64,000 nucleotides of DNA. Source: Escherichia coli (GTDB taxonomy: Bacteria; Pseudomonadota; Gammaproteobacteria; Enterobacterales; Enterobacteriaceae). The stretch lies in the NCBI RefSeq assembly GCF_003334405.1, contig NZ_QOWM01000001.1, one strand, 5' to 3'. Positions 1,471-5,136 of the stretch are shown here, piece after piece. The translations under genes and the position numbers were made by a program. Position 1 is the stretch's first letter. Every line of letters starts with the position of its first letter. Under the pieces are notes generated by a model. It did not search any database. It saw only the letters and a program-made list of their open reading frames with translations, and was not told where the DNA came from.

Positions 1471-2334
1471 ATGCGTTGGCAAGGGCGACGTGAAAGTGAC
1501 AATGTTGAAGACAGGCGCAACAGCTCTGGTGGTCCATCTATGGGCGGTCCCGGTTTTCGCCTGCCAAGCGGTAAAGGCGGGCTGATTTTACTGATAGTCG
1601 TGCTGGTTGCAGGCTACTATGGTGTTGATTTAACCGGGTTGATGACCGGGCAGCCGGTTTCCCAACAACAATCAACGCGGTCAATTAGCCCAAATGAAGA
1701 CGAAGCCGCAAAATTCACCTCGGTGATTCTGGCAACCACGGAAGACACCTGGGGACAACAGTTCGAGAAGATGGGTAAGACCTATCAGCAACCGAAGCTG
1801 GTCATGTACCGTGGAATGACGCGTACCGGCTGCGGGGCGGGCCAGTCCATAATGGGGCCGTTCTATTGCCCGGCGGATGGCACGGTTTATATCGATCTCT
1901 CCTTCTATGATGACATGAAAGACAAACTTGGCGCGGATGGCGATTTTGCCCAGGGGTACGTTATCGCCCATGAAGTCGGTCATCATGTGCAGAAACTGTT
2001 AGGCATCGAGCCGAAAGTTCGTCAACTGCAACAAAACGCGACGCAGGCGGAAGTAAACCGCTTATCTGTGCGTATGGAACTCCAGGCCGACTGTTTTGCC
2101 GGTGTCTGGGGGCATAGTATGCAGCAGCAAGGCGTTCTGGAAACCGGCGATCTGGAAGAGGCGCTGAACGCGGCGCAGGCCATCGGCGATGACCGTTTAC
2201 AACAGCAAAGTCAGGGGCGAGTAGTACCAGACAGTTTCACTCATGGCACTTCTCAGCAACGCTACAGCTGGTTTAAACGTGGTTTCGACAGCGGCGATCC
2301 GGCACAATGCAATACTTTTGGTAAAAGCATTTAA
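1471..2334 (+). CDS. ypfJ: Predicted zinc metalloprotease-like protein YpfJ
   Basis: 287-aa ORF with an N-terminal transmembrane segment and an HExxH motif ([10 protein letters not shown]). Confidence 0.85.
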
Positions 2335-2348
2335 CTTCCGGGGCAGGG

Positions 2349-4364
2349 ATGGCTGAACTGACTGCGCTTCACACATTAACAGCGCAAATGAAACGTGAAG
2401 GGATCCGCCGCTTGCTGGTGTTGAGCGGGGAAGAGGGTTGGTGTTTTGAGCATACTCTTAAGTTGCGTGATGCCTTACCTGGCGACTGGCTGTGGATTTC
2501 GCCGCGGCCAGATGCTGAAAACCACTGTTCTCCCTCGGCACTACAAACTTTACTTGGGCGCGAGTTCCGGCATGCGGTATTCGACGCCCGCCACGGCTTT
2601 GATGCCGCTGCCTTTGCCGCACTTAGCGGAACGTTGAAAGCGGGAAGCTGGCTGGTTTTGTTACTCCCTGTATGGGAAGAGTGGGAAAACCAACCTGATG
2701 CCGACTCGCTGCGCTGGAGTGATTGCCCTGACCCTATTGCGACGCCGCATTTTGTCCAGCATCTCAAACGCGTACTTACGGCGGATAACGAGGCTATCCT
2801 CTGGCGGCAAAACCAGCCATTCTCGTTGGCGCATTTTACTCCCCGTACTGACTGGTACCCCGCGACTGGCGCACCACAACCAGAACAACAGCAACTCTTA
2901 AAGCAGCTAATGACCATGCCGCCGGGCGTGGCAGCGGTAACGGCTGCGCGTGGGCGCGGTAAGTCGGCGTTGGCAGGGCAACTCATTTCTCGTATTGCGG
3001 GCAGAGCGATTGTCACCGCGCCCGCAAAAGCGTCAACGGATGTACTGGCACAATTTGCGGGCGAGAAGTTTCGCTTTATTGCGCCGGATGCCTTGTTAGC
3101 CAGCGATGAGCAAGCCGACTGGCTGGTGGTCGATGAAGCCGCAGCCATACCTGCGCCATTGTTGCATCAACTGGTATCGCGTTTTCCTCGAACGTTGTTA
3201 ACCACTACGGTGCAGGGCTACGAAGGCACCGGACGTGGTTTTTTGCTGAAATTTTGCGCTCGCTTTCCGCATTTACACCGTTTTGAACTGCAACAGCCGA
3301 TCCGCTGGGCGCAGGGATGCCCGCTGGAAAAAATGGTCAGCGAGGCACTGGTTTTTGACGATGAAAACTTCACCCATACACCACAAGGCAATATTGTCAT
3401 TTCCGCATTTGAACAGACGTTATGGCAAAGCGATCCAGAAACGCCGTTAAAGGTTTATCAGCTCTTGTCTGGTGCGCACTATCGGACTTCGCCGCTGGAT
3501 TTACGCCGGATGATGGATGCACCAGGGCAACATTTTTTACAGGCGGCTGGCGAAAACGAGATTGCCGGGGCGCTGTGGCTGGTGGATGAGGGTGGATTAT
3601 CTCAACAACTCAGTCAGGCGGTATGGGCAGGTTTTCGTCGCCCGCGGGGTAATCTGGTGGCCCAGTCGCTGGCGGCGCACGGCAACAATCCACTGGCGGC
3701 GACATTGCGTGGACGGCGGGTCAGCCGGATAGCAGTTCATCCGGCTCGTCAGCGGGAAGGCACAGGGCGGCAACTTATTGCTGGTGCTTTGCAATATACG
3801 CAAGACCTCGACTATCTTTCGGTGAGTTTTGGTTACACCGGGGAGTTATGGCGTTTCTGGCAACGCTGCGGTTTTGTGCTGGTGCGGATGGGTAATCATC
3901 GGGAAGCCAGCAGCGGTTGCTATACGGCGATGGCGCTGTTACCGATGAGTGATGCGGGTAAACAGCTGGCTGAACGTGAGCATTACCGTTTACGTCGCGA
4001 TGCGCAAGCTCTCGCGCAGTGGAATGGCGAAACGCTTCCTGTTGATCCACTAAACGATGCCGTCCTTTCTGACGACGACTGGCTTGAACTGGCCGGTTTT
4101 GCTTTCGCTCATCGTCCGCTATTAACGTCGTTAGGTTGCTTATTGCGTCTGTTACAAACCAGTGAACTGGCATTACCGGCGCTGCGTGGGCGTTTACAGA
4201 AAAACGCCAGTGATGCGCAGTTATGTACCACACTTAAACTTTCAGGCCGCAAGATGTTACTGGTCCGTCAGCGGGAAGAGGCCGCGCAGGCGCTGTTCGC
4301 ACTTAATGATGTTCGCACTGAGCGTCTGCGCGATCGCATAACGCAATGGCAATTATTTCACTGA
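2349..4364 (+). CDS. tmcA: tRNA(Met) cytidine acetyltransferase TmcA
   Basis: 671-aa ORF with a Walker-A-like GRGKSAL motif and a C-terminal acetyltransferase-like region; 15 bp after ypfJ. Confidence 0.9.
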   Translation: MAELTALHTLTAQMKREGIRRLLVLSGEEGWCFEHTLKLRDALPGDWLWISPRPDAENHCSPSALQTLLGREFRHAVFDARHGFDAAAFAALSGTLKAGSWLVLLLPVWEEWENQPDADSLRWSDCPDPIATPHFVQHLKRVLTADNEAILWRQNQPFSLAHFTPRTDWYPATGAPQPEQQQLLKQLMTMPPGVAAVTAARGRGKSALAGQLISRIAGRAIVTAPAKASTDVLAQFAGEKFRFIAPDALLASDEQADWLVVDEAAAIPAPLLHQLVSRFPRTLLTTTVQGYEGTGRGFLLKFCARFPHLHRFELQQPIRWAQGCPLEKMVSEALVFDDENFTHTPQGNIVISAFEQTLWQSDPETPLKVYQLLSGAHYRTSPLDLRRMMDAPGQHFLQAAGENEIAGALWLVDEGGLSQQLSQAVWAGFRRPRGNLVAQSLAAHGNNPLAATLRGRRVSRIAVHPARQREGTGRQLIAGALQYTQDLDYLSVSFGYTGELWRFWQRCGFVLVRMGNHREASSGCYTAMALLPMSDAGKQLAEREHYRLRRDAQALAQWNGETLPVDPLNDAVLSDDDWLELAGFAFAHRPLLTSLGCLLRLLQTSELALPALRGRLQKNASDAQLCTTLKLSGRKMLLVRQREEAAQALFALNDVRTERLRDRITQWQLFH

Positions 4365-4437
4365 CTCCTTCAATTTTATCTCATGGTCATTGTGAGTCAG
4401 CGGCGTAAAATTAATGACATCAGTTAAGGAGTTCGCC

Positions 4438-5136
4438 ATGAAACATGACCATTTTGTTGTTCAAAGCCCGGATAAACCTGCGCAACAGTTGTTACTGCTT
4501 TTCCACGGTGTCGGGGATAACCCGGTGGCAATGGGGGAAATAGGCAACTGGTTTGCACCGCTGTTTCCTGATGCGCTGGTGGTGAGTGTCGGTGGCGCGG
4601 AGCCGAGCGGTAATCCGGCGGGGCGTCAGTGGTTTTCGGTGCAGGGTATTACGGAAGATAATCGCCAGGCGCGTGTGGATGCGATCATGCCGACGTTTAT
4701 TGAAACGGTGCGCTACTGGCAGAAACAGAGCGGAGTAGGGGCTAACGCCACGGCGCTCATCGGTTTCTCTCAAGGCGCGATTATGGTGCTGGAGAGCATT
4801 AAAGCCGAACCGGGCCTTGCTTCACGCGTCATTGCTTTTAACGGACGCTATGCGAGCCTGCCGGAAACTGCGTCTACAGCCACGACAATTCACCTGATTC
4901 ATGGCGGTGAAGATCCGGTTATCGATCTGGCGCATGCGGTTGCTGCGCAGGAAGCGTTAATCAGTGCCGGTGGTGACGTGACGCTGGATATCGTGGAGGA
5001 TTTAGGCCATGCGATCGACAATCGCAGTATGCAATTTGCCCTGGATCACTTGCGTTATACCATTCCGAAACATTATTTCGACGAAGCGCTAAGTGGCGGT
5101 AAGCCTGGCGATGATGATGTGATTGAAATGATGTAA
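4438..5136 (+). CDS. ypfH: Esterase / serine hydrolase YpfH
   Basis: Product MKHDHFVVQSPDKP... with a GxSxG nucleophile elbow (GFSQG); ATG at 4438 preceded by aagga. Confidence 0.85.
   Translation: MKHDHFVVQSPDKPAQQLLLLFHGVGDNPVAMGEIGNWFAPLFPDALVVSVGGAEPSGNPAGRQWFSVQGITEDNRQARVDAIMPTFIETVRYWQKQSGVGANATALIGFSQGAIMVLESIKAEPGLASRVIAFNGRYASLPETASTATTIHLIHGGEDPVIDLAHAVAAQEALISAGGDVTLDIVEDLGHAIDNRSMQFALDHLRYTIPKHYFDEALSGGKPGDDDVIEMM

Follow-up and report, generated by a model that had tools for sequence, protein, structure and literature searches.

In the cytoplasm, TmcA forms ac4C34 on elongator tRNA-Met with the help of ATP and acetyl-CoA, and its gene lies between ypfJ and ypfH in Escherichia coli. 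For YpfJ, Zn-dependent proteolysis has been demonstrated with KPN_02809, its orthologue from Klebsiella pneumoniae MGH 78578, which binds one Zn and cleaves casein; EDTA, phenanthroline and DTT each inhibit this protein, and the H171S and E172D mutants have lost activity. Acyl-CoA donors serve TmcA for both RNA and lysine acylation, and YpfH has been counted with the E. coli thioesterases (PMC11367265). At the transcript level, RegulonDB already listed ypfJ-tmcA as an operon, and SMRT-Cappable-seq (PMC6131387, Supplementary Data 2 and 3) described a b2475-b2474-b2473 mRNA that spans all three genes and starts at K-12 positions 2596763 and 2596784. Gene content, gene order, operon status and the basic biochemistry of the three products were thus all known before this analysis.

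The window analysed here, a 64,000-nucleotide stretch of DNA, is E. coli chromosome. The locus aligned with K-12 MG1655 at 99.986% identity over 7.4 kb, gap-free and with one mismatch, showed 100% DNA identity to several E. coli strains and was found in 5426 out of 5426 complete genomes. RefSeq names the genes ypfJ, tmcA and ypfH, with which Pfam and NCBIfam concur; since these are real genes, chance is not at issue. As the initial annotation had proposed, the ORF list contains three co-directional frames, all on the + strand. Its spacing needed a small correction: the ypfJ-tmcA gap is 14 bp instead of 15 bp, while the gap of about 70 bp between tmcA and ypfH agrees with the 73 bp measured up to the annotated ypfH ATG (49 bp up to an upstream in-frame ATG). 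The ypfH ORF spans 4414-5136, and the start at 4438 is backed by annotation and profile. The ypfJ-tmcA-ypfH segment of the window is an already annotated, ordinary E. coli region, with the following features:

1319-1347, + strand: purC terminator, leaky, formed by a G+C-rich hairpin of 11 bp with no U tract (fold z-score -2.9)
1409-1417, + strand: ypfJ promoter 1, extended -10 TGgTAATCT with TSS 1424 (hexamer assigned by eye)
1432-1437, + strand: ypfJ promoter 2, -10 TACGAT with TSS 1445 (hexamer assigned by eye)
1471-2334, + strand: ypfJ, 287 aa, zinc metallopeptidase of the PF04228 family, inner-membrane-anchored, catalytic domain probably periplasmic
2303-2316, + strand: promoter within the 3' end of ypfJ, -10-like CACAAT at 2303-2308 and TSS 2316, giving tmcA-ypfH transcripts
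2349-4364, + strand: tmcA, 671 aa, tRNA(Met) cytidine-34 N4-acetyltransferase
4384-4419, + strand: ypfH own promoter, -35-like TGGTCA at 4384-4389, -10 TAAAAT at 4406-4411 and TSS 4419
4438-5136, + strand: ypfH, 232 aa, PF02230-family esterase of the alpha/beta-hydrolase type, cytoplasmic
5151-5227, no strand assigned: REP element pair in the gap between the convergent genes ypfH and ypfN, probably marking the 3' limit of the unit (Rfam naRNA4, 92.7 bits; fold z-score -5.5)

The REP pair was the only RNA element that an Rfam search of the three intergenic regions returned.

The initial annotation had read an HExxH motif and a membrane anchor in YpfJ and a GxSxG motif in YpfH, and all three were recovered (in YpfJ, HEVGH beginning at residue 167 and a hydrophobic segment spanning residues ~36-56; in YpfH, GFSQG at residue 109). 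YpfJ matched PF04228 along the entire model (positions 1-290 of 290, E 9e-150) and NF050010 over residues 1-283 (380.2 bits, cut-off 250). The zinc-binding motif HEVGHH occupies residues 167-172, and H167, H171, H172, E203 and D207 were invariant among 81 sequences. In 80 out of 81 family members the N-terminal hydrophobic segment was present, with a family median of 8 K/R residues ahead of it and 0 in the next 15 residues, and 76 out of 81 carried exactly four Cys. YpfJ would be an N-in, single-pass, inner-membrane-anchored Zn endopeptidase of the gluzincin type (HExxH...ExxxD), whose catalytic domain, with its four conserved cysteines, would face the periplasm, a topology that we infer from the hydrophobic segment, its flanking charges, the cysteine count and the DTT sensitivity of the Klebsiella orthologue. 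The active site of YpfJ is predicted on the periplasmic side, while TmcA and YpfH are cytoplasmic. The AlphaFold model of YpfJ places the conserved N-terminal 20 residues at high confidence, and this confident N-terminus fits poorly with a tail lying across the membrane from the rest of the protein. By analogy, zinc-dependent proteolysis may extend to E. coli YpfJ, the activity having been demonstrated for the Klebsiella orthologue only. One conserved YpfJ lineage without the catalytic glutamate may be of specialist interest.

All four domains of the TmcA Pfam architecture (TmcA_N, NAT10/TmcA helicase, GNAT_2 and tRNA_bind_3) were detected, the match to PDB 2zpa covered residues 1-671 with 1538.7 bits, and the R-G-R-G-K-S motif at 201-206 was invariant. 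The sole NCBIfam match of TmcA was to a haloarchaeal model, with 243.7 against a cut-off of 700, which is irrelevant for a bacterial enzyme. Similarly, YpfH matched the NF008525 profile with 427.7 bits (cut-off 191) and PF02230 (Abhydrolase_2) with an E-value of 2e-59, and its nearest solved relatives were the esterases 5dwd and 4fhz. Across 21 orthologues the G-F-S-Q-G motif was kept, and of the triad residues D159 and H191 were invariant and S111 was present in 20. Annotations list YpfH as an esterase/thioesterase, and it has been used as such; it would be a Ser-Asp-His enzyme of that type acting in the cytoplasm. The original enzymatic screen is that of Kuznetsova et al. 2005. The initial annotation had treated both hydrolases as proteins of unknown function, a view that stands for their physiological substrates and gives way elsewhere to the Klebsiella Zn protease and the esterase/thioesterase annotation.

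Published transcript ends allowed the transcription of the locus to be placed on the window. The K-12 TSSs 2596763, 2596784, 2595892 and 2593789 mapped to positions 1445, 1424, 2316 and 4419, respectively. According to PMC6131387, the TSSs at 2596784 and 2596763 yield ypfJ as well as ypfJ-tmcA-ypfH transcripts, b2474-b2473 transcripts begin at 2595892, inside ypfJ, and a b2473-only transcript begins at 2593789. In addition, ypfJ is reached by read-through from purC and dapA (PMC6131387, Supplementary Data 1-3). The published 3' end at K-12 2596861 corresponds to position 1347, the end of the purC hairpin, where 58 out of 88 purC reads stop and 19 run through. A perfect TATAAT at 1444-1449 was considered as ypfJ promoter and dropped, as the published TSSs, which map to 1424 and 1445, do not fit it. 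A simple promoter and terminator scan returned sites no more numerous than in shuffled sequence, and just one of its matches, the ypfH promoter, was upheld by conservation and published start sites. Specifically, CATGGTCAT and GCGTAnAnT were conserved among 27 fixed-length intergenic regions, and the ypfH-only TSS at 4419 sits exactly behind this promoter, which is conserved across Enterobacterales. The same scan revealed no terminator-like site in the ypfJ-tmcA or the tmcA-ypfH gap.

The three genes showed the co-direction, the short gaps and the lack of intervening terminators expected of an operon, but they did not share one common promoter, given the extra starts at 2316 and 4419. The co-transcription that the initial annotation had suggested from the spacing was right and had already been shown, as published ypfJ-tmcA-ypfH transcripts arise from two starts (PMC6131387); the unit is more complex than an operon with one promoter. 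The published data show that transcripts from the two promoters upstream of ypfJ, and those reading through from purC and dapA, extend across the three genes in the direction of the REP pair, which precedes the convergent ypfN. A weak start within the last 20 bp of ypfJ feeds tmcA-ypfH, and ypfH is additionally driven by its own conserved sigma-70 promoter. We consider it most probable that the b2475-b2473 segment is a set of nested transcription units and not a functional module, and that the three products work separately.

Gene-neighbourhood conservation bore on whether the three genes belong together. The sample comprised the 80 loci that matched E. coli TmcA best in a genome scan, almost all from Enterobacterales, with Enterobacteriaceae over-represented and remote tmcA lineages sampled singly; the TmcA homologue search itself yielded near-identical E. 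coli proteins only, and 50%-identity representatives were used instead. Neighbourhoods extended 10 kb either side of tmcA, so that an absent gene is one absent there and not from the genome. Of the 73 assessable Enterobacterales loci, 45 carried all three genes, 14 had just ypfJ beside tmcA, 4 had just ypfH and 10 had neither neighbour. The gene order whose conservation across Gammaproteobacteria the initial annotation proposed to check was hence found within Enterobacterales (these 45 out of 73 loci) but in none of the seven tmcA loci outside, two from Pasteurellaceae and five remote, which had neither ypfJ nor ypfH near tmcA. As evidence against its proposal, the initial annotation had named independent promoters and terminators for every gene and no linkage outside Enterobacteriaceae; internal promoters are present, but the linkage reaches Erwiniaceae and Yersiniaceae, and therefore only half of this picture was observed.

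A single functional module of ypfJ, tmcA and ypfH, for example a shared pathway of acetyl-group or tRNA metabolism, would accord with the tight packing in one direction, the three-gene mRNA and the order retained in 29 out of 31 Enterobacteriaceae, 8 out of 12 Erwiniaceae and 7 out of 8 Yersiniaceae loci sampled. We regard it as extremely improbable. The predicted periplasmic active site of YpfJ is remote from tRNA and acetyl-CoA, and outside Enterobacteriaceae and Erwiniaceae yeaL and a gap of 22-932 bp part ypfJ from tmcA. At three remote ypfJ loci no linkage was found (0 out of 3), the ypfJ homologues being solitary there with unrelated neighbours. In the neighbourhoods of the 73 loci, ypfJ and ypfH were not jointly present or absent next to tmcA, and each had been lost independently of it. 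A Y. pestis ypfJ insertion mutant was also without effect in the single screen found in the literature. In the loci sampled, linkage occurred in Enterobacterales only, and in no distant lineage independently of the surrounding synteny. The tie to acetyl turnover or tRNA metabolism, on which the initial annotation had speculated, gained no support, in view of a linkage that ends at Enterobacterales, the independent losses and a YpfJ predicted to act across the membrane from TmcA.

The downstream half of the cluster is more constant. Directly 3' of tmcA, ypfH was found in 51 out of 75 sampled Enterobacterales loci, with a remarkably constant spacer of usually 72-78 bp. Together with the joint transcripts, the gap free of terminator-like sites, the place of YpfH among E. 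coli thioesterases and the acyl-CoA donors used by TmcA, this would suit a functional pair in which the esterase/thioesterase counteracts or tunes TmcA, by taking N4-acetyl off cytidine, acyl groups off lysines or by hydrolysing the acyl-CoA donor, with ypfJ as a bystander. Such a pair is quite improbable in our judgement, given that ypfH is served by a conserved promoter of its own and also occurs as a mono-cistronic transcript, and that no adjoining ypfH was found in Morganellaceae (12 out of 12), Budviciaceae (2 out of 2), 4 out of 12 Erwiniaceae, Pasteurellaceae or any remote locus. TmcA is also far more widespread, whereas the best 120 named YpfH relatives were all from Enterobacterales, the order past which the homologue search did not extend. 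Moreover, the adjacency of tmcA and ypfH is little informative because the entire surrounding block, from bamC to yffB, is equally syntenic in Enterobacterales. That Enterobacterales employ YpfH in an accessory role, as a serine hydrolase that is an "eraser" or tuner of TmcA chemistry, be it on N4-acetylcytidine, on acetyl- or 2-hydroxyisobutyryl-lysine or on the acyl-CoA donor, is very doubtful; if true, it would account for the place that ypfH has kept directly 3' of tmcA, at a fixed distance and on shared transcripts. Under the preferred reading of separately working products, the adjacency would be inherited synteny within the Enterobacterales block bamC-purC-ypfJ-(yeaL)-tmcA-ypfH, followed by convergent ypfN-dapE-yffB.

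The tight ypfJ-tmcA junction of E. coli is probably derived. Among 25 sampled Enterobacterales loci carrying yeaL (DUF441), 21 had it -1 to 18 bp 5' of tmcA and the other four at 52-840 bp, the close gaps being typical of most Yersiniaceae, Pectobacteriaceae, Morganellaceae and Budviciaceae loci. The 14-bp ypfJ-tmcA junction may have arisen as yeaL left the upstream flank of tmcA in Enterobacteriaceae and Erwiniaceae, and tmcA may simply ride on any gene upstream of it. E. coli YeaL is encoded at another locus and is 73% identical to tmcA-linked YeaL proteins. These gaps also raise an unlikely alternative, in which the membrane protein YeaL is the meaningful conserved partner of TmcA and E. 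coli ypfJ just took the place of yeaL as the translationally coupled upstream cistron. Two remote loci without ypfJ, whose TmcA is just 36-37% identical, do keep the yeaL-tmcA pair, with gaps of 3 and 14 bp, but Enterobacteriaceae, Erwiniaceae, Serratia and Hafniaceae have yeaL unlinked from tmcA, and it is not beside tmcA in Pasteurellaceae and three remote loci. A literature search on DUF441/yeaL returned nothing relevant and no experimental link to TmcA. The yeaL-tmcA pairing is older and tighter than that of ypfJ-tmcA, an observation of possible specialist interest.

Altogether, the ypfJ-tmcA-ypfH observation matters little, since it is already on record. The useful outcome is a negative one, as adjacency here gives no ground for a functional link of the tRNA acetyltransferase with its two neighbours. 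Compared with known systems, YpfH shares a full-length family match and the Ser-Asp-His triad with the Abhydrolase_2 (PF02230) carboxylesterases 5dwd and 4fhz, although the solved members are distant from it (E 4e-17 to 3e-4). YpfJ belongs with KPN_02809 to one family over the full length, with HExxH and the four cysteines in both, and the gluzincin families M13 (PepO, neprilysin, Zmp1), M4 (thermolysin) and M48 (BepA) are metallopeptidases counted among its nearest known counterparts. Within the TmcA / NAT10 / Kre33 RNA cytidine acetyltransferases, TmcA of the window is identical to 2zpa, the E. coli enzyme of the crystal structure, and has its helicase, GNAT and tRNA-binding domains; the protein itself is no different, whereas the context of its gene varies by lineage. 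In K-12, where RegulonDB gives ypfJ-tmcA and ypfH as operons, ypfJ (b2475), tmcA (b2474, formerly ypfI) and ypfH (b2473) match the window in genes, order, spacing and mapped transcription starts, with no difference of substance.

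The window is a piece of E. coli chromosome, whose region at 1300-5250 was 100% identical to several strains and occurred in every complete E. coli genome in the collection (5426 out of 5426). Since the first 7.4 kb of the window aligned with K-12 MG1655 without gaps and with a single mismatch, window positions were calculated as 2598208 minus the K-12 coordinate. In the RefSeq annotation, dapA, bamC, purC, ypfJ, tmcA and ypfH share one strand, and the next genes, ypfN, dapE and yffB, lie on the opposite one. The cluster comprised:

1471-2334, + strand, ypfJ (ORF call)
2349-4364, + strand, tmcA (ORF call)
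4438-5136, + strand, ypfH (ORF; start set by the family profile and the ypfH-only transcript)

A longer ypfH ORF from 4414 was set aside because the family profile starts at the second Met and the ypfH-only transcript begins at 4419. The intergenic distances were 167 bp (purC-ypfJ), 14 bp (ypfJ-tmcA), 73 bp (tmcA-ypfH) and 109 bp (ypfH to the convergent ypfN). ORF positions and gap lengths agreed to within one base with the initial annotation, whose description of three packed co-directional genes was thus correct. A REP pair (5151-5227) was located between ypfH and ypfN, with naRNA4 (Rfam) above the gathering threshold on both strands (92.7 and 61.5 bits); a further naRNA4 match, the third, fell below threshold in the bamC/purC interval (493-537). 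The yffB-acrD intergenic region, which is AT-rich (35% G+C), contains the small gene ypfM (+ strand, RefSeq) and borders the acrD start, presented an STnc250 (Rfam) near-match (7381-7500, + strand; 37.5 bits vs a threshold of 42).

Co-transcription, initially proposed from the gene spacing, proved right and had already been published. SMRT-Cappable-seq (Supplementary Data 1-3) revealed ypfJ-tmcA-ypfH transcripts starting at K-12 2596784 and 2596763, transcripts of ypfJ alone (2596784), tmcA-ypfH (2595892) and ypfH alone (2593789), and purC-ypfJ and dapA-bamC-purC-ypfJ read-through transcripts (PMC6131387). The purC 3' end lies at K-12 2596861; of the 88 reads counted, 58 end there and 19 read through (PMC6131387). 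RegulonDB at that time listed ypfJ-tmcA as one operon and ypfH as another. Published long reads also showed that read-through of the dapA-bamC terminator varies with growth conditions, at 44% in M9 and 14% in rich medium; window 1-1347 covers the bamC 3' end and purC, dapA lying further upstream, beyond the window.

When converted, the published starts fell at 1424, 1445, 2316 and 4419, each with a -10-like hexamer 6-8 nt upstream, and the purC 3' end at 1347, 5 nt past an 11-bp hairpin without a U tract. An alignment of 27 Enterobacterales, made independently of the transcript data, showed that the tmcA-ypfH spacer was near-constant in length (72-78 bp in Enterobacteriaceae). Within it, CATGGTCAT and GCGTAnAnT stood out as two conserved blocks at promoter spacing, with variable bases in between; the published ypfH start lies 7 nt past the second block. 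A scan of the ypfJ-tmcA and tmcA-ypfH gaps found no terminator-like site in either. Altogether, the published transcripts, the internal starts, the conserved ypfH promoter blocks and the lack of terminator-like sites in these gaps show ypfJ-tmcA-ypfH to be nested transcription units, co-transcribed and carrying internal promoters.

For the conservation analysis, TmcA representatives at 50% identity were aligned and used to fetch the best 80 loci from as many species, 78 of them in Enterobacterales and 2 in Pasteurellaceae, a sample biased towards close relatives; neighbours were found by tblastn within 10 kb each side of tmcA. The block bamC-purC-ypfJ-tmcA-ypfH / ypfN-dapE-yffB was syntenic across the whole order Enterobacterales. 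Among 73 assessable loci, 45 carried all three genes, 14 ypfJ only, 4 ypfH only and 10 neither.

Assessable loci with all three genes together, by family
Enterobacteriaceae, 29/31
Erwiniaceae, 8/12
Yersiniaceae, 7/8
Pectobacteriaceae, 0/5
Morganellaceae, 0/12
Budviciaceae, 0/2

Neither ypfJ nor ypfH was found near tmcA in the two Pasteurellaceae (Rodentibacter) loci or in five remote loci outside the order, whose TmcA (34-37% identity) and DapE (53-55%) fell under the range within Enterobacterales. Three remote ypfJ homologues were surrounded by unrelated genes, without the linkage, and the named YpfH relatives among the matches listed were all Enterobacterales. Therefore, the linkage extends past Enterobacteriaceae, as in Erwiniaceae and Yersiniaceae, and stops at the order. 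Since adjacency, spacing and shared transcripts of tmcA and ypfH are kept in two thirds of the sampled Enterobacterales, a functional pair of these two genes retains a slim chance. As for the flanking genes, ypfJ and ypfH have each been gained or lost next to tmcA independently of it. At two non-enterobacterial loci (L092 3363-4877 and L093 3449-4970), the ypfJ homologue had a divergent HerA-like ATPase gene (DUF87/HerA_C) immediately upstream.

A 150-codon gene for a DUF441 membrane protein separated ypfJ from tmcA in Yersinia, Rahnella, Rouxiella, Pectobacteriaceae, Morganellaceae and Budviciaceae, and also preceded tmcA in two remote lineages. Examples from the comparison loci, with the E. 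coli gene, were:

L041 9544-9996, DUF441 (YeaL-like) gene upstream of tmcA
L065 9471-9923, DUF441 (YeaL-like) gene upstream of tmcA
L035 9498-9950, DUF441 (YeaL-like) gene upstream of tmcA
L084 5542-5985, DUF441 (YeaL-like) gene upstream of tmcA
L085 101-556, DUF441 (YeaL-like) gene upstream of tmcA
L095 8353-8799, E. coli yeaL, at a separate locus beside yeaK

The DUF441 gene ended -1 to 18 bp from the tmcA start in most loci (52-840 bp in four), and ypfJ, if present, lay 22-932 bp further upstream. E. coli YeaL, encoded 0.7 Mb from tmcA, is 73% identical to the tmcA-linked proteins, in line with the divergence of YpfJ itself; judged by sequence, it is probably their relocated orthologue, and the 14-bp spacing between ypfJ and tmcA in E. 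coli would therefore be secondary, probably left by the departure of yeaL. Neither ypfJ nor ypfH is as widespread a tmcA neighbour as the DUF441 gene. With few exceptions among the lineages, tmcA abuts or overlaps its preceding gene, whichever that is, which suggests that it may depend on upstream transcription, perhaps with translational coupling.

TmcA presented TmcA_N, helicase, GNAT and tRNA-binding domains and aligned along its whole length with 2zpa, the crystallised E. coli enzyme. This enzyme writes ac4C34 on elongator tRNA-Met; it has also been reported as a lysine 2-hydroxyisobutyryltransferase. YpfH matched PF02230 and the esterase equivalog NF008525, and its sequence contained no N-terminal hydrophobic segment. 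Asp159 and His191 were invariant among 21 orthologues, and Ser111 was retained in 20 of them; the sole exception for Ser111, from Erwinia persicina (L026 12081-12770), carries GFAQG for GFSQG, replacing the nucleophilic Ser.

Both Pfam PF04228 and NCBIfam equivalog NF050010 matched YpfJ along its entire length, and the protein carried HEVGHH at residues 167-172 and a single hydrophobic segment at about 36-56. Across 81 aligned family members, ranging from enterobacteria to cyanobacteria, H167, H171, H172, E203, D207, C133, C208 and C280 were invariant and C121 almost so; 76 had exactly four cysteines and 80 the N-terminal hydrophobic segment. A median of 8 Lys/Arg preceded this segment and 0 occurred in the 15 residues after it, which, by the positive-inside rule, predicts an N-in anchor with a putatively periplasmic, disulfide-stabilised catalytic domain. 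Residues 1-20 (window 1471-1530) hold a motif that is near-invariant in the family and may act as a propeptide-like plug or as a cytoplasmic signal. AlphaFold modelled it at pLDDT 82-94, including a short strand, despite the predicted membrane helix before the catalytic domain, and the predicted topology leaves this confident model unaccounted for. A conserved lineage of 19 cluster representatives (P0271-P0288 and P0290), sharing 54-100% identity with P0271 and about 45% with E. coli YpfJ, carried HA[VF]GHH instead of HExGHH, having lost the catalytic Glu and retained the histidines and ELQAD/EFQAD. In 'Klebsiella sp. BIGb0407' (L027 9147-9998), such a gene occupies the usual ypfJ site, overlapping the tmcA start by 4 bp.

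The initial annotation had also speculated on a link to acetyl-group or tRNA metabolism, which found no support in the gene distribution, the promoter structure or the predicted cell compartment. Its statement that YpfJ and YpfH are of unknown function held only in part, as YpfH is counted among the E. coli thioesterases (PMC11367265) and the Klebsiella orthologue of YpfJ, KPN_02809, is a zinc protease. KPN_02809 binds one zinc and degrades casein, and EDTA, phenanthroline and HExxH mutations abolish its activity; its sensitivity to DTT fits the predicted periplasmic, disulfide-stabilised domain of YpfJ. It is for this Klebsiella protein that protease activity is on record.
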